NCBI GenBank assembly: GCA_016201205.1 | Contig: JACQDF010000049.1 | Coordinates: forward strand, 4,401 to 68,400 | DNA length: 64,000 nt | Reading direction: 5' to 3' | Source: Acidobacteriota bacterium | GTDB lineage: Bacteria > Acidobacteriota > Terriglobia > Bryobacterales > Bryobacteraceae | Made by a program: the position numbers and the translations under genes | Part shown: positions 26,564-59,295 of the stretch, one piece after another | Numbering within the stretch: position 1 is the first letter of the stretch | Layout of the letters: each line of letters begins with the position of its first letter | Notes under the pieces: model-generated | The model's input: the letters and a program-made list of their open reading frames with translations, nothing else | Database searches by the model: none | Told to the model about the DNA's origin: nothing

Positions 26564-29500
26564 TCAAAGGGCGAGGGCAAGCGGGCTGATCCGGGGTCCG
26601 GGCAGCACGATGCCCGATAGATTCAGAGGGTCGGCCGGCGCCACAGGCCGGTCCGGTTCAGACGGAGCGGAACGCCGCACCGCCCGCAGCAGGTCGACCG
26701 CTTCCGGCAGCGCGAAGTGCTCCCCGACCAGCGCCGCGGCAAATCGTCCTCCGCGGATTTCGCCTCGCATCTCCATTCTTCGCAGCACAACCAGCAGATC
26801 GCGCCACGGCGGTGCGAGGACCTCCCGCGCCAGCACATCACGGCACAGCACGCCCCAGCGTCGCAGCAATACTTTGCCAAACCACTCCACGCCAGGTGTG
26901 GCGTTGCGATCCAGGAGCGCCCATCGCCCGGCAGCGTGGCGTGGCCGCGCCAGCCGCCCTCGCCCCTCTCCCCGGCGCCGCTTTTCGTCCACCAGCGCGC
27001 GGAGATTCTCGAAGCCGTCCGCAGTCACCAGCCCGGCTGCGATCAGCTCCCACAGCGCGTCTTCCACTTCACTGGCCAGATGCCCGGACCCGCGTTGCAG
27101 ATCAGCAAAGAAGGATGCTCCGCGGCGTTCGAGCACGGCCTTGACATCACACGCCGCATGCGACAGGAGCGGCTCCGCAATCGGCGCCAGCAGCGCTTCC
27201 GCGTCTTCGCGAGGAAAAATCGCCAGCGGAGTCAGCCGGTTGGGCCGCACACCGGGCCCGGAAGGCGGCGACAGCCGCGCCCACATCACTTCGCCGGAAA
27301 GACAAAGCTGATCGAGCAATTCCGGCGCATAGCCCGCCACCCGCCTCGCCAGCACCTGCGTCTCCCAGGCCGCGGCGGGCGCCTCGTAGCCTTCCAGTTG
27401 CCGGATCACCGCCATCAACCCGTCGGCGCCATGGAGTTGCGTCCCCGGCGCTGCGTGCTGCCAGGCATGCAGAAAACGCACAAACTCGCTGCTCGTGACC
27501 GGCTCGATCTCGCGGCGCAGCTTGCTCATCGTCAGCCGGTGAATGCGCGCCAGCAGGCGTCGGTTGCACCACTCGGCGGCGCCGCTCTGGGTGAACTGGC
27601 CGCGCAGCACTTGCCCGGCGGCCTCAAGACGCGCTAAGCCCGCTTCGACGAGCTTGCCGGGCAACGAGAGTTTTTCCGCCAGTGCGCTGCTGCTCGCCGG
27701 CCCGACGGACTCGAGCCAGCCGCCGATCAGTTGAGCCGCCGCCGCCTCGTCTTCCTTTTCGTAAACAAGCCGCGCCGCGTCCGCCCGCTCCGCCGGGACC
27801 CAAAAGCCGCGATAGACCAGGACACGCCGGTCTCGAGCCAGCGAGTGGAAATGCTCCTGCCATTCGCCGGCCGGCGGCAAAACGACCAGCGTCATCAGCG
27901 CGTCGTGAAGCTCATCGGCATCGCGCACGGCGGGCCAGGCCTCTTCAGCCACTGTGCGGATGGCTTCCGGATCGAGCATGCCGGGCGCGCCGGGCAGCTC
28001 GATGCCCGCGCTGCGGCGCAGTTGCACGGCGCGCGCGCGCCGTTCTTCCAGCGGAGCATCATCGAGAAACGCGAATGGATTCGCATTCACGATTTCGTGC
28101 GAGAACGGCGACGCGGCCGGCGTCTCAATGGCCACCGTGGCGATCGCGCCGCTCTCGATGCCGGCGAGCGCCTCGCCCAGGCCGTCCAGATCCATCGCCT
28201 CATGCAGGCAGTTGGATATCGTCTCGTTCACCAGCGGGTGAACCGGAATGCGGATCTCGCCGCTGAGATTCTCCGCGCAGGCGGCTTGATCCGGAAACAC
28301 GGCCGCAACCAGATCATCCGCTTTCATCCGCTGCAACGGAGCGGGGACTTTCCGGCCGCCGGCAAACCGGGGGATCGCCAGCGCACGCGTTGCGTTCCAG
28401 CGCCAGCGGACGGCGAACATCGGCGACGCCAGCAGAGCCTGTGTCAGCACCGGCTCCACCGTATTGCTCTTGAGAAACTCGAAGACGATCTCCAGGGGAA
28501 ACGAATGCTGCTCGCTGAGGGAGATGATGATGCCGTTGTCGGTCGCCGCCGCCTGCAATTCCACGTTGAACGAGCGGCAGAACCGCTTTCGCAGCGCCAG
28601 TCCCCAGGCGCGGGTGATGCGGGCGCCGAAGGGAGCATGAATCACAAGCTGCATCCCGCCCGATTCGTCAAAGAAGCGCTCGGCGATCACCCGCCGGCGG
28701 GACGGCACGGCGCCCAAAGCCGCGCGGCCCGCCTGCACGTAATCGACAACCTGCCCGGCGCCACGCGCATCGAGGCCGCATTCGCGCATCAGGAACTCCG
28801 CCGCATCGGCGCGTTGGGCGATCTGCTCCCGCAAGCCGGAGACATGCCCGGACAGCTCCGGCGTGCGACTGGGAGCTTCGCCGCGCCAGAATGGAATCGA
28901 CGGCGCCATCCCCTGTGCGTCCTCGACGCGCAGCCGCCCCGGCTCCACTCTCCGCACCCGCCACGAGCTCGCCCCCAGGATGAACACGTCGCCCACCATG
29001 CTCTCCATGGCGAAATCCTCATCCACGGTGCCGACCGTCGAGCCGTCCGGCTCGGCGACGACGTTGTACATCGTCGTGTCCGGGATCGCACCTCCCGAGG
29101 TGATCGCGGCGATGCGCGCCCCCCGGCGAGCGCGCACTTTGCCGTTGATGCGGTCGTGATGCAGGTACGCCGTGCTGCGCCCGCGCGAGGTCGTGATGCC
29201 TTCCGACAGCATCTCGAGCACCGCGTCAAAGGCCGCCCGCTCCAGCGATTCGTACGACCAGGCGGATTTGGCCAGCGCGAACAGGTCCTCTTGCTTCCAT
29301 TCGCCGGTGGCGCAGGCGGCGACAAGCTGCTGAGCCAGGATGTCGAGCGGCGCGCGCGGCTTGAGGAAGCAGTCGAGGTCGCCGCTGCGCATCCCTCGAA
29401 CCAGCGCCGCGCATTCGATCAGCTCGTCGCGCGTGGTGGGGAAGAACCGCCCTTTGGATTTCGCACCCACCCAATGCCCCGAACGGCCGATGCGTTGAAA

Positions 29501-30550
29501 CGCCACCGCCAGCGAGCGGGGCGAGCCGATCTGGCAGACCAGGTCCACCGTGCCGATATCAATGCCCAGTTCGAGCGAAGCGGTGGCGACCACCGCCCGC
29601 AATGCCCCCTTCTTGAGCTTCTCCTCGACCGACAGGCGTGTGCGGCGCGACAGGCTGCCGTGGTGCGGCATCACCAGATCCTCGCCGATGCGCCCGGCAA
29701 GGTGATGCGCCACGCGCTCCGACAGCCGCCGCGTGCTGACGAAGATCAGCGTGGTGCGATTCTCGAGCGCCAGTTCCGCCAGCCGGTCGTAGACTTCGGC
29801 CCACATCTCCGTGCTCGCCACCGGGCCCAGCTCGTCGCGGGGCGCCTCGATGGCGAGTTCCATTTCTCTGCGCTCGCCCGCGCGAACGATGCGCGTGGAT
29901 GGGCCCAGAAAGCGAGCCATCTCCTCGATCGGCTTTACCGTGGCCGACAGCCCGATCCGCTGCGGCCTGGATCCGGTCAGGGCGTCCAGCCGCGCCAGCG
30001 TCAGCGCGAGATGCGAGCCGCGCTTGTCCCCGGCGACAGCGTGAATCTCATCGACGATCACCGTGCTCGCCGTGGCCAGTGTGCGCCGCGACCCTTCCGC
30101 CGTCAGGAGAATGTAGAGCGACTCCGGCGTGGTGACCAGGATGTGCGGAGGCTCGCGCCGCATGCGCGCCCGCTCCCGCTGCTGAGTGTCGCCGGTGCGC
30201 ACCGCGGTGCGAATCTCCTGCAACGGGACTCCTTTTTCGGCGGCCAGCGCTTTGATTTCCGCCAAAGGCGCCTCGAGGTTCCTGTGCACGTCGTTGCTCA
30301 GCGCCTTCAGTGGGGAAACGTAAACGACTTCCGTGCGGTCAGCCAGCATGCTTTGCCGCGCCGCTTTCACCAGAGCGTCCACGCAGATGAGGAATGCCGC
30401 CAGCGTCTTGCCGGAGCCGGTGGGTGCCCAGATGAGCACATCGTGACCTGCTTGTATTTCCGGCCAGCCGAGCGATTGCGGCTCGGTCGGCGCCTTAAAC
30501 TTGCGCTCGAACCACTCACGCACCAATGGATCCAGCTCAGTCAGCGGCAT
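26564..30550 (-). CDS. lhr: Lhr-family large ATP-dependent DEAD/DEAH-box helicase
   Basis: 1328 aa. WAPTGSGKTLAAFL (motif I), VDEIHA (motif II), and a long Lhr-type C-terminal extension. Confidence 0.85.
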   Translation of the reverse strand: MPLTELDPLVREWFERKFKAPTEPQSLGWPEIQAGHDVLIWAPTGSGKTLAAFLICVDALVKAARQSMLADRTEVVYVSPLKALSNDVHRNLEAPLAEIKALAAEKGVPLQEIRTAVRTGDTQQRERARMRREPPHILVTTPESLYILLTAEGSRRTLATASTVIVDEIHAVAGDKRGSHLALTLARLDALTGSRPQRIGLSATVKPIEEMARFLGPSTRIVRAGERREMELAIEAPRDELGPVASTEMWAEVYDRLAELALENRTTLIFVSTRRLSERVAHHLAGRIGEDLVMPHHGSLSRRTRLSVEEKLKKGALRAVVATASLELGIDIGTVDLVCQIGSPRSLAVAFQRIGRSGHWVGAKSKGRFFPTTRDELIECAALVRGMRSGDLDCFLKPRAPLDILAQQLVAACATGEWKQEDLFALAKSAWSYESLERAAFDAVLEMLSEGITTSRGRSTAYLHHDRINGKVRARRGARIAAITSGGAIPDTTMYNVVAEPDGSTVGTVDEDFAMESMVGDVFILGASSWRVRRVEPGRLRVEDAQGMAPSIPFWRGEAPSRTPELSGHVSGLREQIAQRADAAEFLMRECGLDARGAGQVVDYVQAGRAALGAVPSRRRVIAERFFDESGGMQLVIHAPFGARITRAWGLALRKRFCRSFNVELQAAATDNGIIISLSEQHSFPLEIVFEFLKSNTVEPVLTQALLASPMFAVRWRWNATRALAIPRFAGGRKVPAPLQRMKADDLVAAVFPDQAACAENLSGEIRIPVHPLVNETISNCLHEAMDLDGLGEALAGIESGAIATVAIETPAASPFSHEIVNANPFAFLDDAPLEERRARAVQLRRSAGIELPGAPGMLDPEAIRTVAEEAWPAVRDADELHDALMTLVVLPPAGEWQEHFHSLARDRRVLVYRGFWVPAERADAARLVYEKEDEAAAAQLIGGWLESVGPASSSALAEKLSLPGKLVEAGLARLEAAGQVLRGQFTQSGAAEWCNRRLLARIHRLTMSKLRREIEPVTSSEFVRFLHAWQHAAPGTQLHGADGLMAVIRQLEGYEAPAAAWETQVLARRVAGYAPELLDQLCLSGEVMWARLSPPSGPGVRPNRLTPLAIFPREDAEALLAPIAEPLLSHAACDVKAVLERRGASFFADLQRGSGHLASEVEDALWELIAAGLVTADGFENLRALVDEKRRRGEGRGRLARPRHAAGRWALLDRNATPGVEWFGKVLLRRWGVLCRDVLAREVLAPPWRDLLVVLRRMEMRGEIRGGRFAAALVGEHFALPEAVDLLRAVRRSAPSEPDRPVAPADPLNLSGIVLPGPRISPLALAL

Positions 30551-31119: not shown

Positions 31120-31527
31120 GGTCCCGATGACTATCCGGGCGCCGCCTCGAAACACGTCCTCGACGGCGAAGCCCTGCTGGCCGCACATCGTTTCGACGGC
31201 GCCGGATATCTGGCCGGCTACGCCGTCGAGTGCACAATCAAGACCGTGGCTCAAGTAGAGGGGAATGTGCTACGCGGCCATGATCTTGGCGGCCTCAGCC
31301 GCAGTGCTTTGGCGTTGGTGGCACTGCCGTCCGGTCGAACGGCTCGTTACCTAACCAATCCTAACCTCACCACCCTGACCTACGGTGATCCGCCGGGATG
31401 GAAGGAAACGATGCGCTATCAGGCAGCAGGATTCGTAAACCAGATTGATGCAGGTACCTGGGTTGCTGAGGCGCGTCGACTCCACGATGAAGTGATAGTC
31501 CAGATGAGGCTGAACGGAGACCTGTGA
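31120..31527 (+). CDS. HEPN-like domain protein; the start codon is unresolved
   Basis: My own translation of the open frame from 31120 reads ..AASKHVLDGEALLAAHRFDGAGYLAGYAVECTIKTVAQVEGNVLRGHDLGGLS...WKETMRYQAAGF... This shows the HEPN-like pattern GYAvEc.iK / .HdL..L / ..RY. The only in-frame ATG/GTG/TTG is GTG 31246 (the 93-aa track ORF). A well-placed GAGG (31118-31121) plus ATG (31127) is one nucleotide out of frame. Confidence 0.55.
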   Translation, partial: GPDDYPGAASKHVLDGEALLAAHRFDGAGYLAGYAVECTIKTVAQVEGNVLRGHDLGGLSRSALALVALPSGRTARYLTNPNLTTLTYGDPPGWKETMRYQAAGFVNQIDAGTWVAEARRLHDEVIVQMRLNGDL

Positions 31528-32822
31528 CGATGCACTTCGGACAAGCACGCCAGGCGGCGGCAACTGTGTTGCAGCAGAATGAGTCGCTCCTCGACCGAGC
31601 AGTTCTGATCGACGATGTCTTCGGCAAGATCCGAGTCGTTGCTTGGTTCACCGCAGATGTTCCGCCGAATGCGGAGAACGGCTTGCGAGGTTCGCTGAAG
31701 GAAGCATCTGGCCCATTCTGGTCGGGCGATCTTTGGGTGGCCAACGGGGCGTCTGCTGCAGATCTCGAGGTCTATGAGACGGCATGGAAGGAGGCCGGCG
31801 AAATCACGCCCAAATTGCGAAGGTCGTCACGTCGGCGGACACGTGGCTTCTGGCTCGAAGCACCGGGCGAACCAGCGTGGCGGCTTCCCGATGACGGCGG
31901 AGCCACGCCGATCGTCGCCTTCTATTCCTTCAAGGGCGGCGTCGGACGCACAACTGCCCTAGCATCATTCGCCGTTCTACGCGCCCGGAAAGGCGAGCGA
32001 GTCGCGGTACTCGACCTTGACTTGGATGCCCCTGGGGTAGGCTTGTTGCTGGATCCGGGCGAGTTCGCCCAACCCTCGGCGTGGGGCGTCGTGGACTATC
32101 TGCTGGAAGCGCCACTGCTTGAACACCTTGATCTTGAGGACTACTACCATGTCTGCGCCCGTGAGGCTCTGACTGGCGCGGGAGAGATCCTGGTCTTCCC
32201 GTCGGGGCGCCTGGAATCCGATTACGTGGCCACCCTCGCACGACTCGACTTGGAGCCTCCACATCCCCGTAAGCAGCATCCCCTTCTGCGGTTATTGGAA
32301 CAAGTTCGGGACGAGTTGCGACCAGAGTGGATATTGCTGGATTGCCGAGCTGGCCTGTCAGAAGCCGCCGGCTTCGCCCTCAGTGGCTTGGCGCATCTTA
32401 CCGTGTTGCTCGGCACGACATCAAATCAGAGTTGGGCGGGCTTGCGTCTTCTCCTCGATCGCCTCGGCGCAGAGCGCGTTCGCAAATCGATATCACAGTC
32501 CGAGTGCTTGATCGTACAGGCGATGGTACCGGATGACCCAACGGTCGGTGGGTTGGCCAGGGAACACTTCGCAGAACGCGCCGCAGAAGAGTTTGAACAG
32601 GCCTATTATGCGGAGAACCCTACAGACCCGGACGAAGACGCCTACTGGTATATGCGCGACATGGATACGGACGACGCACCGCACGTGCCGGTAGTGATCT
32701 CTTACAAGCCTCGGCTGGCGTTTCTGCGGTCGATAGAAGATGCCGTACCCGTCTTCCAAGATTCCGAATACGGCGCCCTGGAGACGCGCATCTCAAGCCG
32801 TTTCGGGAAGGAGGGGGAATGA
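31524..32822 (+). CDS. ParA/MinD-class ATPase with variant Walker A 'KGGVGR', carrying an unassigned ~125-aa N-terminal domain
   Basis: IVAFYSFKGGVGRTTALASFAVL (deviant Walker A with Arg in place of the P-loop Lys), VAVLDLDLDAPGVG (A' box) and EWILLDCRAGLSE (Walker B). The start is GTG 31524 (GTGA overlap with the HEPN stop) or ATG 31530, preceded by GGAGA at 31516-31520. Confidence 0.8.
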   Translation: MTMHFGQARQAAATVLQQNESLLDRAVLIDDVFGKIRVVAWFTADVPPNAENGLRGSLKEASGPFWSGDLWVANGASAADLEVYETAWKEAGEITPKLRRSSRRRTRGFWLEAPGEPAWRLPDDGGATPIVAFYSFKGGVGRTTALASFAVLRARKGERVAVLDLDLDAPGVGLLLDPGEFAQPSAWGVVDYLLEAPLLEHLDLEDYYHVCAREALTGAGEILVFPSGRLESDYVATLARLDLEPPHPRKQHPLLRLLEQVRDELRPEWILLDCRAGLSEAAGFALSGLAHLTVLLGTTSNQSWAGLRLLLDRLGAERVRKSISQSECLIVQAMVPDDPTVGGLAREHFAERAAEEFEQAYYAENPTDPDEDAYWYMRDMDTDDAPHVPVVISYKPRLAFLRSIEDAVPVFQDSEYGALETRISSRFGKEGE

Positions 32823-34300
32823 GCCGCCTTCAACAAGAAGAACGTATTGTGTTGCTGAGTGATCTGGCGAGCATGGGCAGCAGTGGCATCGCCGAGAATG
32901 AAAATGCCGCCACGTTCCGTCAGACCTTCTATCCGGTCGCCGAGCACAGTCGTGCATTTGATCCCGACGTTGCCCTCGTTGTCGGAAGTCGCGGTTCCGG
33001 AAAGAGTGAGCTGTTCCGAGCAGTGGTGCGTGAGAAACTGTTACCTGCAATCGCGCGCGTGAGCGGCGGGCAACTGAGCCGGTTGATGCCGCAGCAAATC
33101 GATTGGGTCGCTGGCCATCCACTCGAGAGGGAGTTCCCGGACATGAGTGGATTACGGCGATACTTCAGCGAGCATCAGTCGGATCCGGATGCGTCCGTTG
33201 ACCTTTGGCGCGCCTATCTTCTTCGGACACTGACAGGACATCTGGACTTGGCCGGTTTCAGAAGCCGGAGCCTTTTTGAATCACAAGGCGCTGACGTCGA
33301 GGCCATAGTGAGGAACTTGGGCGATCTCGGAAATCAGCCGGTGCTCGCGCTTGACCGATTGGACCAGACCTTGGAGGGCAGCCAACGCTGGATCATCGTC
33401 AGCTACGACGAACTCGACGTGATCGGTGGCTACGATTGGCATTCCATGGTCCAGTCTATTCACGGGCTGATCTCATTTTGGGCCAACAACGCCCGGCGCT
33501 GGAAACGTATCCGGCCAAAGATCTTCTTGCGAACGGACCTGTTTCGCCGGCATGCCCAATCGTTCGGCGCCGATCTCATCAAACTGGCCGCCAACCGGGC
33601 CGAGATCACATGGAGCGATCGCAACCTGTACGGCATGCTGGTGAAGCGGCTGGCGAATGCCAGTGAAGACCTGCGCCGCTACTGCGAGGCTGCTCGTGTT
33701 CGGTTTGAACAAGACGTTGATCTCGCGCTGATTCCATTGATAGGAAAATCCCCCGATGCGCGCCCGCTGATTGAGAGGATTGCCGGGCAGTACATGGGTG
33801 CCAACCTCAAAAAGGGTCGTACGTTTGCTTGGTTACTCACTCACATTCGCGACGGGAATGGTCACGCCATGCCGCGCGCCCTCGTCCGGCTGATCGAGAA
33901 GGCTGCGAGCCAGGAACTTGAGCGACCTCTGGCGACTTACAATCGGTTGCTCGACCCCCGCAGTCTCCGCCGCGCGCTGGACGATGTGTCCAAGGAACAC
34001 GTATTGGAGGTGAACACCCACGAGCTGCCCTGGTTGCCTGGTGTCAAGGATCGATTGGAGGGTTCTGGCGTTCCTATGCTGCGCCGAGAAGCCGAGCGAC
34101 TGCTCAGCCGCGGATGGGACGACTCGTGGAATATAACGCAACCCTGCGCGCGCCCGCCAGCGAACGCGGCCACCGAACTGGTTACGCAGTTGACTGAGAT
34201 TGGTGTTTTCCGGGTGCGCCCAGATGGCCGAATCGATGTCCCCGACCTGTTCATGGCGGGCCTCGGGCTCTCACGTAAGGGCGGCGTGCGAAAACGGTGA
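32819..34300 (+). CDS. P-loop NTPase of unassigned family (STAND/Sll1717-like is only my impression)
   Basis: Walker A is DVALVVGSRGSGKSELF and Walker B is RWIIVSYDELD, followed by RPKIFLRTDLF and AEITWSDRNLYGMLVKRL. The C-terminus is basic: ..IGVFRVRPDGRIDVPDLFMAGLGLSRKGGVRKR. GGAGG lies at 32810-32814, and there is an ATGA overlap with the upstream stop. Confidence 0.8.
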   Translation: MSRLQQEERIVLLSDLASMGSSGIAENENAATFRQTFYPVAEHSRAFDPDVALVVGSRGSGKSELFRAVVREKLLPAIARVSGGQLSRLMPQQIDWVAGHPLEREFPDMSGLRRYFSEHQSDPDASVDLWRAYLLRTLTGHLDLAGFRSRSLFESQGADVEAIVRNLGDLGNQPVLALDRLDQTLEGSQRWIIVSYDELDVIGGYDWHSMVQSIHGLISFWANNARRWKRIRPKIFLRTDLFRRHAQSFGADLIKLAANRAEITWSDRNLYGMLVKRLANASEDLRRYCEAARVRFEQDVDLALIPLIGKSPDARPLIERIAGQYMGANLKKGRTFAWLLTHIRDGNGHAMPRALVRLIEKAASQELERPLATYNRLLDPRSLRRALDDVSKEHVLEVNTHELPWLPGVKDRLEGSGVPMLRREAERLLSRGWDDSWNITQPCARPPANAATELVTQLTEIGVFRVRPDGRIDVPDLFMAGLGLSRKGGVRKR

Positions 34301-49550: not shown

Positions 49551-51550
49551 ATGTGAGCATCTCCTGATGAACTGGCAACAATCTCCGAAAAGTCAGCGAT
49601 CGAGGAAAACTCCGTGAGCAGGTTGGCCAGAAGCGTGAGACGGTTGCGCCGCACCTTCTCGTCGGGCGCGTTGACGAGCACCTTGTCAAAGAAAAGGTCC
49701 ACCCGCGGGCGGATTCGTGCGATTTCTTCCAGCGCCGCCTGATAAGCCAGGCTTTGGATCGTGTCGCGGACGTGGCGGAAGCCGTCGTGAAGCTCGCGCT
49801 CCGGCCCGCCTTCCAGCAGCGCCTCGTTCACCGCTCCGCCTTCATAAAAGTCCGCCTGCCGCAGGATGTTCTTGATGCGCTTGAAGCTGGCGGCCAGCGG
49901 CTCGAAGTGCTCCGTGGGGCGGACGGCCTGCAACGCCGCCAGCCTCTCGGCCACGTCGGGTAAGTCGTCGCAGCCGGCGGTCAGCACGGCGTTGACTTCG
50001 TCGTAGGCGTAGCCGCGAACATCGCGGAAATAGTAGCGGACGCGGTCGACAAGGAATTCGCTCAACGCGGCGTCGCCGGCGGCGACTTTGGCCAGCGGGA
50101 ACTGAATCCCGCCTTCCACCAGAATCTTTACAATGCCCTGCGCGGCCCGCCGCAGCGCAAACGGGTCCTTCGAACCGCTTGGAATCATGCCGATGGCGAA
50201 GCAGCCGCGGAGCGTGTCGATCTTATCCGCCAACGCAACGATCCGCCCTTCCGCCGTCGAAGGAATCGCGTCCTCCATGCCGGCCGGCTTGTAGTGATCA
50301 TAGATGGCCTTGGCCACCGCTTCCGGTTCGCCTTGCGCGCTCGCGTACAGCCCGCCAACCACGCCTTCGAGCTCGGTGAACTCCTTCACCATTTCCGTCG
50401 CCAGGTCGCACTTGGAAAGCAACGCCGCCCGCTCGGCGTCCGCGTTGCCGCCCAGTTCCTTGACCAGCGCCACCATGCGATTCGTCTTATCAAGATACGA
50501 GCCCAGCCGCGCCTGAAACGTAACATGGGCAAGATCCGGCACGCGATCCGCCAGCTTCTTCGGTTGATCGAATTCCCAGAAGAAACGCGCGTCATTGAAC
50601 CGCGCGCTCAGCACGCGCTCATTGCCGCGCCGCACCATGCCTTCCGGATCACCGGCGATGTTCATGACGGCGAGGAAATGCGGCGCCAGCTTGCCGCCCG
50701 CATCCAGCACCGAGAAATACTTCTGGTGATGGCGCATCACCGTGATGAGCACCTCTTCCGGCAGCGTCAGGTAGCCGGGATCAAAGCTGCCGAGGATCGG
50801 CGTCGGGTATTCGGTCAGATAGACGAGCGTATCCAGAAGCGCATCGTCGCTCTTGATGTGTACATTGATGCCGCTCAGAATGCGCTCGCGGCGTCTGGTC
50901 GAAGACACGAGGACGCCATTGGCGGCGAGCTGCTGCTCGTAATTGCCGGCGTGCACGGGAAAACATCCCGAGCCCATGCCGCGGTGGCCCATGGTCTTAT
51001 TGCCGGAATGGACGCCCGCCAGCTCGAACGGAATCACCTCTTCGCCCAGCACAGCCACCAGCCAGCGGATGGGCCGGATGAAGCGCGGCCCGTTCTTCCC
51101 GGTCCAGTACATCGTCTTGGGAAAGTAGATCTTCAGAATCAGCTCCGGGAGCTCGACGGCGAGGATGTCCTTCGCGGCGCAGCCTTCGACCTTCCTGAGC
51201 GCCGCCACATATTCGCCTTTCGGCGTCGCTTCGATGCGAAGCTGCCCGACGTCGACGCTGTTCTTCCTGGCAAAGCCCACGGCCGCCGCGGTGGGCTTGC
51301 CGTCTTTGAACGCAGCCGCTTTCGGCGGGCCCATCACGAGCTGTTCGCTGTCGGCCTGGCGCGCAAGCACTTCGTCGATGATGAGGGCGATCCGGCGCGG
51401 AGTCGCGTCGGCGAAACGCGTCGTGCCTCCCAGCTTCTGCTCGCCGAGCATGCCTGTCACCAGATCGCGAAAATTCTCCACCGCCGGGCGGATCATCCAA
51501 TCAGGGATCTCTTCCGTGCCGATCTCCACCAGCAGGGCAAGCGCGCCCAT
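49547..51550 (-). CDS. glyS: Glycine--tRNA ligase beta subunit
   Basis: The start at 51550 ([16 protein letters not shown]) overlaps the glyQ stop by 1 nt. There is an ATGA-type overlap with the ppdK start. Confidence 0.9.
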   Translation of the reverse strand: MGALALLVEIGTEEIPDWMIRPAVENFRDLVTGMLGEQKLGGTTRFADATPRRIALIIDEVLARQADSEQLVMGPPKAAAFKDGKPTAAAVGFARKNSVDVGQLRIEATPKGEYVAALRKVEGCAAKDILAVELPELILKIYFPKTMYWTGKNGPRFIRPIRWLVAVLGEEVIPFELAGVHSGNKTMGHRGMGSGCFPVHAGNYEQQLAANGVLVSSTRRRERILSGINVHIKSDDALLDTLVYLTEYPTPILGSFDPGYLTLPEEVLITVMRHHQKYFSVLDAGGKLAPHFLAVMNIAGDPEGMVRRGNERVLSARFNDARFFWEFDQPKKLADRVPDLAHVTFQARLGSYLDKTNRMVALVKELGGNADAERAALLSKCDLATEMVKEFTELEGVVGGLYASAQGEPEAVAKAIYDHYKPAGMEDAIPSTAEGRIVALADKIDTLRGCFAIGMIPSGSKDPFALRRAAQGIVKILVEGGIQFPLAKVAAGDAALSEFLVDRVRYYFRDVRGYAYDEVNAVLTAGCDDLPDVAERLAALQAVRPTEHFEPLAASFKRIKNILRQADFYEGGAVNEALLEGGPERELHDGFRHVRDTIQSLAYQAALEEIARIRPRVDLFFDKVLVNAPDEKVRRNRLTLLANLLTEFSSIADFSEIVASSSGDAHI

Positions 51551-52443
51551 TAAGCTGCCTCCTCGCCTGTGGAAGCATTCTGCTCGATCCACAGCCCGGC
51601 CACGCCAACCGCCAGCTTGCGCACCCGCCCGATCACACCGACGCGCTCGGTGACGCTGATCGCGCCTCGCGAGTCCAGCAGGTTAAACAGATTCGAGCAC
51701 TTCAGCACCTGGTCGTAGGCCGCAAGCACCGGAAAACGGCTCTTCTCCGGATAGCTCTTATAGGCGTCCATCAGCCGCCGGCATTCCTTTTCGTGCAATT
51801 CGAACAATTGCCACAGCGTGGGGATGTCGGCCAGCTCGAAGTTGTAGACCGACTGCTGGAGCTCTTCGGCATGCCGCACCTCACGGTACTTCACCTCCCG
51901 GGTCCAGTCGATGTCGAACACGCTGGATTTGTTCTGCAGGAAGGCCACCAGCCGCTCGATGCCGTACGTCAGCTCAGCGGGAACCAGCTCGAGATCGACG
52001 CCCCCGCACTGCTGAAAATAGGTGAATTGCGTGATTTCCAGGCCATCCATCATCACCTGCCAGCCAATGCCCCACGCGCCCAGCGTCGGCGATTCCCAGT
52101 TGTCCTCCTCGAACTTGAGATCGTGTTTGGAGAGCTCGATGCCGATGGCCTCGAGGCTGCCGAGATATTGATCGACGATGTCGGCCGGCGACGGCTTCAG
52201 GATCACCTGAAGCTGCTGGTGCTTGTAAAGCCGGTTCGGGTTCTCGCCATAGCGGCCGTCCGCCGGCCGGCGGCTCGGCTGCACATACGCAACGCGATAC
52301 GGCCGCGGGCCAAGCACGCGCAGAAACGTCTCCGGGCACATGGTGCCGGCGCCGACCTCCACGTCGTAGGGCTCCTGAATGATGCAGCCGCGGTCCGACC
52401 AGTATTGCTTCAGCTTGAAGATTGTTTCCTGGAAAGTGTCCAT
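51550..52443 (-). CDS. glyQ: Glycine--tRNA ligase alpha subunit
   Basis: [17 protein letters not shown]...[18 protein letters not shown]... Confidence 0.95.
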
Positions 52444-52458
52444 CGGTCGCTTACAGCT

Positions 52459-53109
52459 TCAGAGGGCTTCGAGCAGCGGCGCGCTTTGCAGGCGCTTTTC
52501 GATCTGCTCCTCGATCAGACGGTGGAGCGTCTGGCGCAGATCGGCCGCCGTCTGCCGCGTCCATTCGCGGGGCGTTAAGTCCTTGATCGGTTTCTCGAAC
52601 ATCTCCTGCGCGATCGCCAGGGACTCGGGACGCACCCGCAGGCCCGGCAAAAACCCCGACAGCCGCACCCCCCAGAGCGCGAAGTACAGCGCCGCCGGCC
52701 AAATGGAGGCGGGCCTCTCCTTTGCGCCCGCCTGCAAGAAATCGAGGACGGCCACCAGCAGACGAAAGAATCGCTCGCTCGGCTCGCCCGGCGGCAGCAG
52801 CTCGTCGGTCACTTCCGCGATGTAGTCCAGCGCGACCCCGGCTTCGTAATTCGCAAGCAGCGAAAACTGCGACCGCATCAGTTCGCACGAATCGAGATTG
52901 ACGAGCTCGCGGTTCTCGCGCTGAAAATAGCTCATCCGCACCAGCGACAGCCGCTCCAGGCCCGCGCCGAAGCTGCTCTTGAGGCGCCGGGCCCGTTTGG
53001 CCACGCCCCGGAGCTTACCCTGGTCCCGGGTGAGGAAGCTGACCACCAGATCCGCTTCTCCAAAGGGATAGGTTCTGAGAACGAATGATTCGCTGACATG
53101 CGCCGGCAT
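52459..53109 (-). CDS. recO: DNA repair protein RecO
   Basis: SESFVLRTYPFGEADLVVSFLTRDQGKLRGVAKRARR... Confidence 0.85.
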   Translation of the reverse strand: MPAHVSESFVLRTYPFGEADLVVSFLTRDQGKLRGVAKRARRLKSSFGAGLERLSLVRMSYFQRENRELVNLDSCELMRSQFSLLANYEAGVALDYIAEVTDELLPPGEPSERFFRLLVAVLDFLQAGAKERPASIWPAALYFALWGVRLSGFLPGLRVRPESLAIAQEMFEKPIKDLTPREWTRQTAADLRQTLHRLIEEQIEKRLQSAPLLEAL

Positions 53110-54711: not shown

Positions 54712-55689
54712 ATGAAGACAACCGAGGTGCTTCACATGCCGTTCGCTTTGATTTGGCTCTCCTGCCTTTCCCTGGCCGCCCAGACCATCAAGGAATGGCC
54801 CATGCCCACGCCAAATTCCATGCCGCACTGCGTCGTGGCCGACTCCAAAGGGAGGATCTGGTACGCCGCGATTGGAGCCGACCTCATCGGGCGGTTTGAC
54901 CCGCAGACGGAGGAATTCATCGAGATCAGGATTCCGACGCCGAACGCGAATCCGCACGGCATCGCGGTCAGCCCCGGAGACGTGATCTGGTTCACCGAGC
55001 AAGGCGCCAACAAGATCGGCCGCATCAACCCGGACACGCTGGAAATCACCGAGTTTCCCGTCCCCACGCCTCAAAGCAGCCCGCATACGCCGATCTACGA
55101 CAACCAGGGCGCCATCTGGTTCACCGAGCAGTCCGGCAACCGCATCGGGCGGCTGCATATCGAGTCGGGATACATCGAAGAATTCGTGATTCCGACCCCG
55201 AACTCCGGCCCGTACGGCATCATCGCCGACAAGGACGGGAACGGGTGGTTCTGCTCGTTCGGCATCGGGTCGAACCGCATCGGACGCATCGATGCGCGAA
55301 CCGTCGAGATCAAGGAGTACCGCACACCGAGCGTGAATTCAGGGCCGCGCCGCCCGTCGATCGATTCCAAGGGCCGGATCTGGCTAACGCTGAACCGCGG
55401 CAATATGCTGGCGGTGTTCGACCCGGCAACCGGGGAATTCAAGGAATGGAACACCCCGACCGAGGATGGGCAGCCCTACGGGATCGTCGTCGATCAGAAC
55501 GACAAGGTCTGGTACAACGAGTTTGTCGGCAATACGATCGTCAAGTTCGACCCCGAGACAGAGCAGTTCTCGGTCACCCCGCATCCGAATCCACGGGCCA
55601 ACGTGCGCATTGTGGCGGTGGACTCGCAGGGACGGATCTGGTACGGGAACAATCGCGAGAGCAAGATCGGCGTGCTGATTCCCGAGTAG
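54712..55689 (+). CDS. Vgb-like (streptogramin-lyase-type) beta-propeller protein, secreted
   Basis: 325 aa with a signal peptide. Repeated blades read P.GI..D..G.IWFTE...N.IGR.D..T.E..E. An alternative start is at 54736. Confidence 0.65.
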   Translation: MKTTEVLHMPFALIWLSCLSLAAQTIKEWPMPTPNSMPHCVVADSKGRIWYAAIGADLIGRFDPQTEEFIEIRIPTPNANPHGIAVSPGDVIWFTEQGANKIGRINPDTLEITEFPVPTPQSSPHTPIYDNQGAIWFTEQSGNRIGRLHIESGYIEEFVIPTPNSGPYGIIADKDGNGWFCSFGIGSNRIGRIDARTVEIKEYRTPSVNSGPRRPSIDSKGRIWLTLNRGNMLAVFDPATGEFKEWNTPTEDGQPYGIVVDQNDKVWYNEFVGNTIVKFDPETEQFSVTPHPNPRANVRIVAVDSQGRIWYGNNRESKIGVLIPE

Positions 55690-55793: not shown

Positions 55794-56612
55794 ATGAACC
55801 GCCATCGACTGGAAGCCAACCTCGAGCAGCTTTGCGCCGACTTGGTGTCCTACGCCGAGAAAAAGAGAATCGCAGTCCCCAACCCGGTTCCGGGTGAAGC
55901 GGCGAGGCTGAGCAAAGTCTTGTACCTGGCGCACTCGACTTCCACTGCGAACTTCCTCGCCATCTGCACGAACGGACGCGTGCTGTCGAAGGCTCAACTT
56001 GCCGCCTCGGGCCAATTGACGCTGAGGGCGAATTCCGCGGAAGTAACGTTGGGCACCGCCGATGCCGTATTCTTCTACCTCGCGCCGTTTCGATATCCAG
56101 CCACCAGTGCCGGCTTGCTGTTCGCGCACACTCTGGAAGAGGATCGTCGCCATGACGGCGTAGCCACTCCGTTCGATTCCGGCGGACTTGTCCACATATT
56201 CACGCGCCATGATCCAGCGGAATCCCCACGCCAATTCCTCTCGCGTCACCAGTTGCCGATCCCCGATCACCGCGACTATCTCGGGCGTTCCCTCAGCGTT
56301 TTGTTTCACTCACCGGCGGACTACCTCGACGGTAAGGAACCTCGGTGGCCGGGCCCGATTGGTCTGACCGGGGGAGATCAGCGGCGGTGGACACACGAGG
56401 TGCGGATTCCATCGCAGGTCTGGGTTCGGACCGGACATTTGCAGGCCGTCTTCGCCCCCACGGCCCTGGTTGCCGACAGTGAGGTCGAGCGTCTCTTGAG
56501 CTGGTGCGAAAGCCAGGGTGTGGACCTCATCACCTTTGACACCCCTGGCAATAGCGGCTTCGAAACGCTACAGCGAGAGTGTCTCGATTATATTCGCCGA
56601 AAGCTACAATAG
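55794..56612 (+). CDS. Hypothetical protein (first gene of the second KGGVGR locus), with a weak ART-fold-like motif order
   Basis: 272-aa ORF in a lower-GC stretch. The ordered motifs are VLYLAHSTSTANFLAICTNGRVLS, ADAVFFYLAP and RRWTHEVRIPSQVWV. I recognise no family. Confidence 0.55.
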   Translation: MNRHRLEANLEQLCADLVSYAEKKRIAVPNPVPGEAARLSKVLYLAHSTSTANFLAICTNGRVLSKAQLAASGQLTLRANSAEVTLGTADAVFFYLAPFRYPATSAGLLFAHTLEEDRRHDGVATPFDSGGLVHIFTRHDPAESPRQFLSRHQLPIPDHRDYLGRSLSVLFHSPADYLDGKEPRWPGPIGLTGGDQRRWTHEVRIPSQVWVRTGHLQAVFAPTALVADSEVERLLSWCESQGVDLITFDTPGNSGFETLQRECLDYIRRKLQ

Positions 56613-56619
56613 TCTTCTT

Positions 56620-57276
56620 ATGCGAACACCCTGGAACTTGGATGACCTGGAAGTCATTGGGTACGCGAATGTTCTGACCGAATCCACGCTGCCTTCCATT
56701 GTGCCTCCCGTGTTCCGTTTAAAGGCCGATCACACGAGGGCCTTCCTTCCTCCGTTTTCGATTAGTGAGGGTTTCTTATGGAACGCCACGGAAGTACCGG
56801 TGACTGAACTTGAGGAGCTCAGGGACGCTTCCGAGATCACGCTTTTCCACAGCGCATTCCCCGCTCAGGGTGATTACGAGCTCTGGGTTGATCAGGCTTT
56901 TGAGTACCATTACCAGCCGTCCGGTGACGCTAGGCAAGCCCTGAGCCGTATCGCGGCGGAAAGCATCGGCAACGCGGAGGCCGCGCTGGCGCGAGGTGAC
57001 ATTGAAGAAGCGGATCGTCTCAGCGGTGTCGCCATCTCGGCGGATTCCAGGCGAGTGGAACCGCTGGCGATCAAAGCAGCCATCAGGCGGATGAAGAAGG
57101 ACGCCAACGCCGAACATCTGATGGCCAAACTGGCCGCGCGTGCATTGGACGAGGGGTCGTTCGCACTCCTGGTGGGGGGCTACTGCCGGATGACCCAAGC
57201 GAAATCTGCGCCAGTGATGCATCAATTGCCGGCTCAAAGTGCAATGTGTGGAATGGCCGCGTTGTCGGTGAACTAA
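56620..57276 (+). CDS. Hypothetical protein (second gene of the locus)
   Basis: ATG 56620 lies 7 nt after the upstream stop (MRTPWNLDDLEVIGYANV...). The track ORF from 56518 overlaps the upstream gene. The C-terminal half is helical (AEAALARGDIEEADRL...). Confidence 0.5.
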   Translation: MRTPWNLDDLEVIGYANVLTESTLPSIVPPVFRLKADHTRAFLPPFSISEGFLWNATEVPVTELEELRDASEITLFHSAFPAQGDYELWVDQAFEYHYQPSGDARQALSRIAAESIGNAEAALARGDIEEADRLSGVAISADSRRVEPLAIKAAIRRMKKDANAEHLMAKLAARALDEGSFALLVGGYCRMTQAKSAPVMHQLPAQSAMCGMAALSVN

Positions 57277-57282
57277 ACCTTA

Positions 57283-59223
57283 ATGCCATTCCCGTATATC
57301 TTCACCTTCTACAGCTACAAGGGCGGCGTCGGCCGGAGCATGGCGCTGCTGAATGTGGCCTACACGCTGGTGGGACGCGGCCGGCACGTGCTTGTGGTTG
57401 ACATGGACCTGGAGGCGCCGGGCCTCAGTAGGTTCCTCAGTCGAAGTAAGGAACTCGCGCCTCCTGCGGCGGCACACCCGAAAGATATCCTGACCTTGCT
57501 TCGGGAGGCGATGGCTGCACTCGGCGCCGGGGGCGAGGTCACCGAGAAGGCGAAGAACCTGCCGCCTGTATCCAACTACATCCGCGTGGTCGCCGAGGGA
57601 AAACTGACGGCCCTCCGGCCGCGAATGGGACAGTTAGGACACTTCGATGTCCTGGGCACTGATCTCACACCCGGTTACTATGGACGCCTGGCTGAACTTG
57701 GATTGGCGGTGCTGCCCCCACAGCAGTTGATTGATCTCAGTCGCATCCTTCACCACTATTTCAAGGGGCAGGAATTCTCTCACCGGCCACTTGGGCTGGA
57801 GGAATTCGAACCGTCCCTTCCGACGCACTACGACTATGTTCTGGTGGACAGCCGTACGGGGGTCACTGAGATCGGGGGGTTGTGCGTTGGGCCATTGGCG
57901 GACCGTTTGGTAGTCATCACCGCGCTGAATGACCAAAACGTGTACGGTACTTGCGATCTTCTGAAGGAAGCTGGCGTTGAGCCCGCGCCGCGACCCGTGG
58001 GTGCTGCCGCTTGGGATGAAGCGGACCTCCACGCGGGCGATCCTGAAAACCCGAGCCTTGGCCCGAAGCCGACGATCGTGGTGGCAAGTCCGGTCCCCGC
58101 TGGCGAGATCGGCTACAAGCGGGAGCGACTGGCAGAGTTGGAGAAAGTGCTCGGCATTCGCCCGGTTCCCCTCTCTTATCACCCGCAGATGGCGCTGATG
58201 GAGAGCGTATTTGTGCGCGATTACCGGGAAGAATACCTGGCCGCGGAGTACGAGAGACTGGCGACACGGATCATGGCGCAGGTCTGCGATGATCCGCAGC
58301 GCCTGGCTTTGAAGAGCGCTGTGTTGTGGAACGAGAAGAAGCAACCGGCCGCAGCCATCTCGTGCGTGTTGAGGCTGGCGCCGCACGAGCCGGCTCTAGG
58401 CGTTCCACTCTTACAAGGACTGGGGAACGTGAGTGCTGCTTCTGACTACGATTTCTGGGCGGTGAGGCAACTCTACGCTTTTCTGTCGCAGGACCGGGAG
58501 TCAAGGCCCATCGCGATGAACAACTGGGGCAATGCGCTGTCGGACCAGGCGAAGACGAAGTCGGGGGAGGAAGCCGGCCGCCTCTTTGAGGAGGCGGGCC
58601 GCAAGTATGCCGAAGCCATCCGGCTGAAGCCGGACAATCCCGAAGCGTTGAGCAACTGGGGCGCTGGGCTGTTGGGCCAAGCGAAGACGAAGTCGGGGGA
58701 GGAAGCCGGCCGGCTCTTTGAGGAGGCGGGCCGCAAGTGTGCCGAAGCCATCCGCCTGAAGCCGGACTATCCCGAAGCGTTGTACAACTGGGGCAATGCG
58801 CTCGTGGGCCAAGCCAGGACGAAGTCGAGGGAGGAAGCCGGCCGGCTCTTTGAGGAGGCGGGCCGCAAGTATGCCGAAGCCATCCGGCTGAAGCCGGACG
58901 ATCCCAAAGCGTTGAGCAACTGGGGCGGTGCGCTCTTGGACCAGGCGCAGACGAAGTCGGGCGAGGAACGCAACCAGTTGATGCAGGAAGCGCGGCAAAA
59001 GCTTATCGAAGCCGAACGCGTTCTCGCTGGCGCGGGGGCTTTCAACATGGCTTGCCTCGAAGCCTTAGCAGGGGATGCCAAGGAAGCGGTTCGCTGGCTG
59101 AGGGTATTGGATTCTTTCGGGGAGCGGATTTCGAAAGCGCGGCTCGCGGCGGAAAAGGACTTTGACGGCGTCCGCGGTCAGCCGGATTTCGCGGGCTTCG
59201 CAGCGTCGCTGCCAGAAGCGTGA
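57283..59223 (+). CDS. KGGVGR-variant ParA/MinD-class ATPase fused to C-terminal TPR repeats
   Basis: IFTFYSYKGGVGRSMALLNVAYTL, VLVVDMDLEAPGL and DYVLVDSRTGVTE. Four 44-aa TPR-like units follow (NWGNAL..QAKTKSGEEAGRLFEEAGRKYAEAIRLKPD.PEAL), with a capping helix region (..DFDGVRGQPDFAGF). Confidence 0.85.
   Translation: MPFPYIFTFYSYKGGVGRSMALLNVAYTLVGRGRHVLVVDMDLEAPGLSRFLSRSKELAPPAAAHPKDILTLLREAMAALGAGGEVTEKAKNLPPVSNYIRVVAEGKLTALRPRMGQLGHFDVLGTDLTPGYYGRLAELGLAVLPPQQLIDLSRILHHYFKGQEFSHRPLGLEEFEPSLPTHYDYVLVDSRTGVTEIGGLCVGPLADRLVVITALNDQNVYGTCDLLKEAGVEPAPRPVGAAAWDEADLHAGDPENPSLGPKPTIVVASPVPAGEIGYKRERLAELEKVLGIRPVPLSYHPQMALMESVFVRDYREEYLAAEYERLATRIMAQVCDDPQRLALKSAVLWNEKKQPAAAISCVLRLAPHEPALGVPLLQGLGNVSAASDYDFWAVRQLYAFLSQDRESRPIAMNNWGNALSDQAKTKSGEEAGRLFEEAGRKYAEAIRLKPDNPEALSNWGAGLLGQAKTKSGEEAGRLFEEAGRKCAEAIRLKPDYPEALYNWGNALVGQARTKSREEAGRLFEEAGRKYAEAIRLKPDDPKALSNWGGALLDQAQTKSGEERNQLMQEARQKLIEAERVLAGAGAFNMACLEALAGDAKEAVRWLRVLDSFGERISKARLAAEKDFDGVRGQPDFAGFAASLPEA
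58519..59046 (+). repeat. Tandem 132-bp coding repeats: three near-identical copies plus one diverged copy
   Basis: Units are 58519-58650, 58651-58782 and 58783-58914. These three are nearly identical at the nucleotide level by eye; a more diverged fourth unit starts at 58915. Confidence 0.85.
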
Positions 59224-59295
59224 TAGTTTGTTCCGATGGTGCGTGGTACAAAACGGAGCCGCGCGCGCCGGCAACTGGCATTTCTCGTCGTGCCG

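Follow-up and report, generated by a model that had tools for sequence, protein, structure and literature searches.

Do three genes that lie almost end to end on one strand of an acidobacterial genome form a single functional unit, and of what kind would that unit be? The question is raised by the operon at positions 55794-59223 of a 64,000-nucleotide (nt) stretch, referred to below as the window, from an Acidobacteriota bacterium of the Bryobacterales (GenBank assembly GCA_016201205.1, contig JACQDF010000049.1, positions 4,401 to 68,400). The source is a metagenome-assembled genome (MAG), in which the locus carries tags HY235_04825 and HY235_04830. According to the listing of open reading frames (ORFs), all three genes are on the plus strand (Table 1): ORF1 (272 amino acids [aa], ATG start), ORF2 (218 aa), and ORF3 (646 aa, ATG start), with intergenic gaps of 7 nt (56613-56619) and 6 nt (57277-57282). 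An earlier interpretation made by a model from the letters of the window (the sequence-only reading) had described this arrangement, and both the ORF listing and the sequence bore it out. For ORF2, the listed GTG start at 56518 was dropped for ATG 56620, which is the correct start because 46 homologs all begin at the matching methionine (M..PWN..DLEIVGY). We found that the three genes (the trio) are a conserved unit, beyond chance, which recurs in dozens of independent loci; most probably, it is an as yet undescribed kind of regulated toxin or immune module. We lean toward the explanation that this locus is a conflict module of three genes, self-contained and horizontally mobile, of the toxin-antitoxin or abortive-infection type.

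The trio was constant in surroundings that were not. ORF1, ORF2, and the KGGVGR-tetratricopeptide repeat (TPR) ATPase encoded by ORF3 kept the same order and strand in five of five independent metagenome contexts, with completely different flanks. A genome scan with one genome per species gave 36 loci, with hosts among Bryobacterales/Solibacteraceae, Holophagaceae, Prosthecobacter and other Verrucomicrobiota, Phycisphaerae/Planctomycetaceae, Lentisphaeria, and Desulfobacula; the trio spans five phyla (Acidobacteriota, Verrucomicrobiota, Planctomycetota, and those represented by Lentisphaeria and Desulfobacula). Scans with hidden Markov models found the full trio at every genome locus with enough sequence but one, with gaps of -4 to +10 nt and overlaps that were often of the ATGA type, and ORF2 lay directly 3' of ORF1 wherever the sequence sufficed. 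The exceptions were truncated contigs, the Holophagaceae locus L041, and six frameshifted, fused, or fragmentary copies in Bryobacterales MAGs (L019, L028, L034, L035, L036, and L043), which may represent real decay or assembly error. Two cassettes were present in one MAG (L023 and L029). In a reciprocal search from the ATPase, for which the metagenome sample was 80 of roughly 570+ KGGVGR-ATPase loci, all nine loci whose ATPase had an identity of 56% or more carried ORF1 and ORF2 upstream. Three loci with an ATPase 36 to 49% identical had a divergent ORF1-family gene upstream (E values of 1e-14 to 1e-25), and about 67 loci at 28 to 39% identity had neither ORF1 nor ORF2. The sequence-only reading had looked to co-localization of the three genes, to conserved partners of the KGGVGR-TPR ATPase, and to ORF1 and ORF2 falling outside housekeeping families; the genes were together across phyla, ORF1 and ORF2 were the conserved partners, and neither belonged to a housekeeping family. 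At three loci (L053, 324-3780; L054, 604-4216; L120, 249-4788), an ORF of 460 to 820 nt that was unmatched by the ORF2 profile lies between the ORF1-like gene and the ATPase and may be a replaced adaptor. Locus L041 (JADJVL010000029.1, 6983-9575) encodes an ORF1 of 297 aa and an ORF2 of 298 aa, followed by an unrelated low-GC ORF of 258 aa that replaces the ATPase, and may be a variant of two genes, or of three with another third component.

The predicted fold of ORF1 suggests an effector. An AlphaFold2 model built on the family alignment had a predicted local distance difference test score (pLDDT) of 95.4 and a predicted template modeling score of 0.92, and its top nine Foldseek matches in PDB all had the ADP-ribosyltransferase (ART) fold (E values of 6e-5 to 5e-3; probability, 0.99 to 1.00), after which the list fell sharply to noise. 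The best match was the DarT structure 7omw (E, 6.4e-5; target-normalized template modeling [TM] score, 0.54), and further matches were 8baq, 7yk3, OspC3 (7wr4), CopC (7wzs), and Tpt1 (7yw4; E, 4.9e-3). The matches thus spanned the DarT proteins of Thermus, E. coli, and M. tuberculosis, the ADP-riboxanases OspC3 and CopC, and yeast Tpt1. Against a viral structure library, ORF1 matched uncharacterized proteins, one DUF3626 protein among them.

We conclude that ORF1 has the ART fold and that its H-Y-E site is plausible. In DarT2 the triad consists of H13, Y71, and E160, and roles have been described for Y71 and E160/E152 (PMC11543638). When the two sequences were read side by side without gaps, with the DarT2 sequence taken from PDB, L-A-H47-S-T-x3-N-F-x2-I-x3-G-R-V-L-S of ORF1 corresponded to Y-H13-I-T-x3-N-L-x2-I-x3-G-K-L-L-A of DarT2, D-x-V-F-F-Y95-L to D-Y-V-P-F-Y71-F, and E202-V-R-I-x12-A-V-F to E160-F-L-V-x12-A-V-Y. 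The residues H47, Y95, and E202 are placed on predicted strands and follow the expected order, a mapping made from sequence and secondary structure. Conservation was counted over 96 diverse family members: position 47 was His in 82, position 95 was Tyr in 61, Phe in 27, and Trp in 4, position 202 was Glu in 93, and R204 was kept in 88, while D128, G130, R160, and Y177 were essentially invariant. Residue 106 of ORF1 (56109-56111) is Ala, at a position where close homologs have a nearly invariant Cys in T-G-C-G-L-L-F; Cys was found there in 50 of the 96 diverse members.

Judged by sequence, ORF1 is a new family outside PF14487 (DarT). That model was unmatched by ORF1, by 56 close homologs, and by 10 distant ones, even at E ≤ 10. 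ORF1 matched no Pfam, NCBIfam, or PADLOC model, nor did ORF2, which agrees with the failure of the sequence-only reading to assign either protein, and ten distant ORF1-family representatives had no Pfam domain. Each of the two is a sizeable protein family that has no entry in these three collections: at E ≤ 1e-3 there were 238 homologs of ORF1 and 160 of ORF2, mostly 50 to 63% identical, and an exhaustive profile search with ORF1 gave 437 representative clusters (50% identity) at the same threshold. ORF1 residues 42 to 73 aligned with DarT residues 8 to 37, weakly but in the same register in HMMER and hhalign, and hhalign against a 120-sequence DarT2 profile gave a pairwise P of 0.002 and a probability of 14% for this N-terminal motif only.

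Among known systems, DarTG resembles the trio in that a small ART-fold protein comes first, and DarT structures are the best structural matches of ORF1. Both have a toxin-like first gene tightly coupled to the next gene and a sporadic accessory distribution, and the H...Y...E arrangement proposed for ORF1, with basic residues just before the putative catalytic Glu, is like that of DarT. However, ORF1 lacks a match to PF14487, and its profile-profile likeness to DarT is limited to a 32-residue motif; it has additional helices at both termini, a large insert that is conserved (residues 113 to 200), and no equivalent of R51 of DarT2. The DarTG antitoxin is the macrodomain protein DarG or NADAR, whereas ORF2 has neither fold, and the trio includes a third, much larger ATPase-TPR gene. 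A separate protein, P0415 (337 aa), belongs to DarT proper (PF14487) and has several TPR domains in precomputed Pfam annotation, an independent DarT-TPR fusion.

The order of the genes also suits a plain toxin-antitoxin addiction module, in which ORF1 would be the toxin, ORF2 a direct-binding antitoxin, and ORF3 an accessory chaperone or stabilizer as in tripartite toxin-antitoxin systems, all serving selfish persistence with no immune role. Such a module would account for the tight translational coupling and the gene order, in which the toxin-like gene leads as it does in darT-darG, for the patchy distribution, variable contexts, and pseudogenes, and for the lack of any association with defense islands. 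However, ORF2 has no DNA-binding or helix-turn-helix (HTH) domain in Pfam or Foldseek searches that could serve autoregulation. The AlphaFold2 model of ORF2 (pLDDT, 89.3) consists of an N-terminal beta domain (residues 1 to 100), a helical domain of three TPR-like units (residues 101 to 193), and a disordered tail with pLDDT below 50 at residues 197 to 218, in which M209 and A213 are nearly invariant in the alignment of homologs. The helical half resembled the TPR domains of Hip, IpgC, Sec72, and RPAP3 (Foldseek E values of 0.06 to 0.3), all of which bind peptides, and the beta domain had no structural match in Foldseek. The Foldseek comparison that the sequence-only reading had called for yielded an ART fold for ORF1 and, for ORF2, a TPR-like helical half only.

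ORF3 was as the sequence-only reading had described it, a KGGVGR ParA-class ATPase fused to TPRs. The protein matched NF047398, 'KGGVGR-motif variant AAA ATPase', with 121 bits (cutoff, 90; E, 7.3e-35) and, in Pfam, AAA_31 and CbiA above the cutoff and ParA and VirC1 below it. Its repeats matched TPR_11 (57.4 bits; cutoff, 26.8) and TOM20_plant (52.9 bits; cutoff, 20.6) in Pfam and are followed by the NF047558 domain. At the DNA level, the array had a period of 132 in TRF, with 88% matches and a score of 716, and its copies were 84 to 90% identical (repeat search family D1). The TPR end-of-group domain was kept at the C terminus of most of the aligned orthologs. Orthologs had the N-terminal ~400 residues in common and ranged in total from 495 to 1314 aa because the number of repeats differs.

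The nucleotide site of this family is unusual and constant. Every intact third gene of the trio had KGGVGR[ST], as did 71 relatives at a greater distance; the signature lysine (K13) was kept, and the canonical P-loop lysine was arginine (R18) in every member. The motifs F-Y-S-x-K-G-G-V-G-R, D40-x-D42-L-x-A-P-G, and D189-x-R191-x-G193 were invariant in the ORF3 orthologs and in a second KGGVGR gene of the window, were kept in the 71 distant relatives, and retain the acidic Mg2+ and Walker B residues of MinD/ParA. We read the strict conservation of residues in Walker A, switch I, and Walker B as pointing to a working nucleotide site in ORF3. The sequence-only reading had invoked STAND-like immune sensors, an analogy that holds for the logic only. 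ORF3 is not a STAND NTPase, since it had no NACHT, NB-ARC, AAA_16, or nSTAND match in Pfam or NCBIfam; the STAND class was rejected on finding only CbiA/ParA/AAA_31/MinD/VirC1-type matches, and the protein is of the MinD/ParA (SIMIBI) type.

This kinship raises the possibility that ORF3 is a spatial ATPase that localizes ORF1 and ORF2 as cargo, or that it has a role in partition or cell division. In common with MinD, ParA, and Soj, it has the signature Lys, the D-x-D of switch I, and the Walker B Asp, and it matches CbiA, ParA, MinD, MipZ, and VirC1 profiles around the P-loop; the nearest solved sequences were those of Borrelia PF-32 and MinD, with similarity only around the P-loop. However, the Lys of the canonical GK[ST] is always Arg, and ORF3 has an insert of ~135 residues between switch I and Walker B as well as the TPR fusion. 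Scores for the positioning equivalogs in NCBIfam were far below their cutoffs (ParA_partition, 21.5 bits versus 180; minD_bact, 19.2 versus 212.9), no ParB or MinE/MinC partner was seen in the trio neighborhoods and no centromere-like repeat at the locus, and the cassette lies on chromosomes, in contexts that vary, and was not found on plasmids. We therefore regard positioning or partition as scarcely credible.

The partners of related ATPases bear on what ORF3 would control. At 69 of 71 loci with more distant KGGVGR ATPases (L055 to L123), a same-strand gene, often of ~200 aa, ends just upstream of the ATPase gene. Among these 69 upstream genes, Pfam gave 21 matches to MqsA_antitoxin, 16 to TIR_2, 11 to HTH_31, 9 to TIR, 6 to DUF4062, 2 each to ThsB_TIR and EAD1, and 1 to TCAD9, counts that overlap, as one gene may match several models. 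The distant ATPases themselves carry TPRs (~16 of 71), a C-terminal TIR_2 (11), or nSTAND1 (6). They are apparently a large, unsurveyed family of two-gene systems. Because relatives adjoin or are fused to TIR, EAD1, TCAD9, and nSTAND1, the KGGVGR domain is a recurrent module of conflict-type architectures, and the ART gene of the trio occupies the place upstream of the ATPase that TIR genes occupy in relatives. For the addiction module, the spectrum counts both ways. MqsA-like/HTH antitoxin-type genes are the commonest upstream partners, but the TIR, EAD1, TCAD9, and nSTAND1 links point to regulated conflict systems, and a variable TPR array in a protein of 500 to 1300 aa would be costly for a chaperone alone. 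We consider an addiction module rather unlikely; it overlaps the conflict module that we favor, and the main difference is the trigger of the toxin.

A survey of NTP-dependent ternary conflict systems (Kaur, Burroughs, Iyer, Aravind 2020, PMC7159879) lists a MinD/ParA-like domain among their modules. These systems and STAND sensors resemble the trio in logic, with a repeat-array sensor, an NTPase, and a separate or fused enzymatic effector, and the conflict systems share EAD1, TCAD9, TIR, and nSTAND1 links with relatives of the ORF3 ATPase. They differ in that ORF3 is a SIMIBI-class MinD/ParA protein, not STAND or MoxR, and in that the trio has no vWA, MoxR, or EAD adaptor; neither the ART family of ORF1 nor ORF2 is named as a domain in the passages of the survey that were searched. 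The survey places MinD/ParA-like domains among effector domains and predicts them to be inactive, which would fit a KGGVGR domain that is itself the effector, e.g., a pseudo-enzyme poisoning the MinD/ParA machinery of the host, with ORF1 and ORF2 as regulators or sensors. The domain is also N-terminal to the nSTAND1 NTPase in six relatives, the usual position of an effector or adaptor. However, the invariance of Walker A, switch I (D-x-D), and Walker B over more than 70 divergent members indicates retained nucleotide binding rather than decay, and a separate enzymatic gene (TIR or ART) directly upstream suggests that this gene is the effector. We give an effector KGGVGR domain little credence.

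In PADLOC, a search that the sequence-only reading had proposed, ORF3 matched part of PDC-M28B only, in the ATPase core (E, 4.9e-24; 83 bits), and ORF1 and ORF2 matched nothing. PDC systems are candidates by 'guilt-by-embedding' and are untested (Payne et al., bioRxiv 10.1101/2024.01.29.577857). PDC-M28 and the trio have the KGGVGR-variant ATPase family and a one-strand, multigene cassette in common, but the trio has no PDC-M28C/Sll1717-family partner, and ORF3 has a TPR array and matches the M28B core only, whereas the window's second KGGVGR gene, at 31524, has no TPR array and matches over its full length. The sequence-only reading had proposed that the operon shares its logic with the cassette at 31 to 34 kb of the window while having different partners, and this held: the ATPases are of the same family, and the other cassette matched PDC-M28B (8.9e-59) and PDC-M28C (4e-71).

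By its genomic context, the cassette is accessory and mobile, because its surroundings differ, one MAG holds two copies, pseudogenes occur, an integrase gene lies near one copy, and the G+C content at third codon positions (GC3) is lower. GC3 was 0.66 to 0.74 in the trio genes versus 0.76 to 0.84 in six neighboring genes, and the operon had 60.8% GC versus 63.4% for the window, an offset that is modest but consistent. The sequence-only reading had called the GC content markedly lower; the two 60-nt lines that it cited (56641-56700 and 57721-57780) do contain 31 and 28 G+C, but 'markedly' was overstated, and a markedly low-GC island was rejected, the drop being real but small. The cassette is sporadic, not universal, within Bryobacterales. 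The integrase case is L001, where, in a Bryobacterales chromosome of 5.56 Mb, the cassette is preceded at ~850 nt by a Phage_integrase-family gene (5224-6147); this was not seen in other loci. No flanking direct or inverted repeats were found around 55.7 to 59.3 kb. The trio is not a defense-island resident, and PADLOC matches in the flanks were single proteins only, mostly to helicase-type models (DpdF, GajB), none recurring.

These surroundings also bear on a housekeeping or regulatory role, in which ORF1 would act either as an NAD+-dependent RNA 2'-phosphotransferase like Tpt1/KptA or as a regulatory ART whose modification is reversible, and ORF2 and ORF3 would form a targeting scaffold. 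The neighboring genes are metabolic, TPR proteins are often scaffolds, and Tpt1 is among the structural matches of ORF1. However, the DarT matches outranked those to Tpt1, the related ATPases pair with TIR domains, GC3 departs from that of the neighbors, and the cassette is sporadic in Bryobacterales, always in a different context, duplicated in one MAG, and a pseudogene in several cases. We judge this role improbable.

For the conflict module that we favor, the gene structure, family assignments, fold, conserved residues, synteny, distribution, and partners of related ATPases are established, whereas NAD+ use, the target, toxicity, the inhibitor roles, the trigger, and an anti-phage role are what we infer, and these would fit together as follows. 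ORF1 would arrest growth by an NAD+-dependent modification of a target in the cell or the invader; nucleic acid is the most likely target because of the nearest structural relatives and the many conserved Arg and His residues. ORF2, which would be made stoichiometrically through translational coupling, would bind ORF1 as an inhibitor and/or adaptor; it is not a hydrolase-type antitoxin like DarG or NADAR. ORF3 would be the regulatory subunit, whose TPR array may sense a signal by binding a ligand or peptide; binding would be coupled to nucleotide-dependent, MinD/ParA-style dimerization of ORF3, leading to release or activation of ORF1. Of the sensor-switch-effector module proposed by the sequence-only reading, the effector-like ART fold of ORF1 and the NTPase with a variable TPR array in ORF3 lend support to the architecture, whereas the immune role and the assignment of parts are matters that we infer only.

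Several observations weigh against this explanation. TM scores for ORF1 in Foldseek were modest (query normalized, 0.26 to 0.44; target normalized, 0.25 to 0.54), with root-mean-square deviations of 6 to 10 Å. Pfam searches at E ≤ 10 with 57 ORF1-family members gave only scattered chance matches of single members (E ≥ 0.037, below cutoff), a PDB profile search with ORF1 gave only chance matches, to ClpB and SAS-6, and hhalign of ORF1 against DarT as a single sequence or as 3-sequence or 120-sequence profiles aligned at most the 32-residue N-terminal motif. His47 is replaced by Asn in some family members. The proton-abstracting R51 of DarT2 has no conserved counterpart in ORF1, where Glu83 is conserved in that loop instead, and the target of ORF1 may therefore differ from that of DarT2. 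Foldseek and Pfam found no macrodomain, NADAR, or other ADP-ribose hydrolase fold in ORF2, no ATPase accompanies ORF1 and the longer ORF2 of the Holophagaceae locus L041, and the MinD/ParA-like domain of conflict systems is 'predicted to be inactive' in PMC7159879. In addition, the 102 nearest flanking proteins of ~35 loci, mostly metabolic, included no recurrent Pfam or PADLOC family, and ORF1 was not found in plasmids or phages by tblastn or in IMG/VR by a pattern scan.

A more far-reaching version of the conflict module, which we offer only tentatively, is that the trio represents an undescribed three-component immune or abortive-infection class. An arginine-P-loop ParA/MinD NTPase with a rapidly varying TPR sensor would control new DarT-like, NAD+-dependent nucleic acid ADP-ribosyltransferases via the novel-fold adaptor or inhibitor ORF2, and KGGVGR ATPases would be a general switch for interchangeable effectors, TIR or ART, that target NAD+. 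Taken singly, ART toxins, TPR sensors, and the KGGVGR ATPases of candidate defense systems are already known. Pfam, NCBIfam, PADLOC, and the literature searched do not contain the combination of a new ART-like family, an ORF2 with an unmatched N-terminal domain, and a ParA-type ATPase-TPR protein, and no description of the trio was found in that literature. The DarT/OspC/Tpt1 group modifies DNA, RNA, or proteins and is a source of genome-editing tools; if ORF1 is an active ADP-ribosyltransferase, it would be a new branch of this group. If ORF3 regulates ORF1, the trio would be a sensor-switch parallel to STAND immune receptors on a ParA/MinD scaffold, an idea that is testable because related ATPases adjoin TIR, EAD1, or antitoxin-like genes. 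The trio lies outside defense islands, and standard discovery pipelines would therefore miss it; its hosts are soil Acidobacteria and bacteria of the Planctomycetes-Verrucomicrobia-Chlamydiae (PVC) group, whose conflict systems are little studied.

Table 1. Features of the three-gene operon and of other parts of the window, in window coordinates
Feature	Position	Strand	Basis or detail
ORF1, ART-fold DarT/OspC/Tpt1-like, putative effector/toxin	55794..56612	+	AlphaFold2 and Foldseek
His47 codon, proposed 'H' of the H-Y-E triad	55932..55934	+	Motif L-A-H-S-T-S, end of strand beta1
Tyr95 codon, proposed 'Y' of the triad	56076..56078	+	Strand D-x-V-F-F-Y-L
Glu202 codon, proposed catalytic glutamate	56397..56399	+	R-R-W-T-H-E-V-R-I, start of strand 202-206
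ORF2, obligate partner protein	56620..57276	+	AlphaFold2, synteny
ORF3, MinD/ParA-type P-loop NTPase and TPR array, putative sensor/switch	57283..59223	+	NF047398
Deviant Walker A, K13-G-G-V-G-R18-S	57319..57339	+	YSYKGGVGRS at aa 10-19
Tandem 132-nt (44-aa) TPR-pair repeats, 3.5 copies	58513..58968	+	TRF
'TPR end-of-group' cap, aa 586-636	59038..59190	+	NF047558, 32.6 bits (cutoff 32)
Hairpin, possible bidirectional terminator	59257..59279		Between the convergent ends of ORF3 and a VWA gene
Second KGGVGR ATPase gene, 432 aa	31524-32822	+	PDC-M28B over full length, 8.9e-59; NF047398, 161.7 bits
Partner gene of the second KGGVGR ATPase, 4-nt overlap	32819-34300	+	PDC-M28C, 4e-71; NCBIfam Sll1717-family P-loop ATPase
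PvdQ-type acylase remnant, 99 codons	54404-54703	-	Profile positions 684-753 of 763, E 6.8e-10
Vgb-like beta-propeller gene	54712-55689	+	Streptogramin-B-lyase model, 165 bits, far below 600-bit cutoff

The neighbors of the operon add little to these results. Upstream, the truncated acylase gene noticed by the sequence-only reading proved to be the C-terminal remnant of a PvdQ-type acylase. The Vgb-like gene next to it has internal periodic DNA repeats of ~129 nt (family D2) and is probably unrelated to the trio, since the upstream gene differs in other genomes. The 3' neighbor of ORF3 is a convergent acidobacterial VWA gene that ends at 59296, and the hairpin between the two genes is terminator-like on both strands, by a consensus match only (six such matches found versus 3.4 expected). 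No sigma-70-like promoter was found at the locus in a promoter scan, which is ill suited to Acidobacteria. From their translations, we take three genes on the minus strand to encode a DEAD/DEAH Lhr-type helicase (26564-30550), the glycyl-tRNA synthetase alpha subunit (51550-52443), and RecO (52459-53109); if these three identities hold, the window is an ordinary chromosomal backbone with two inserted KGGVGR cassettes.

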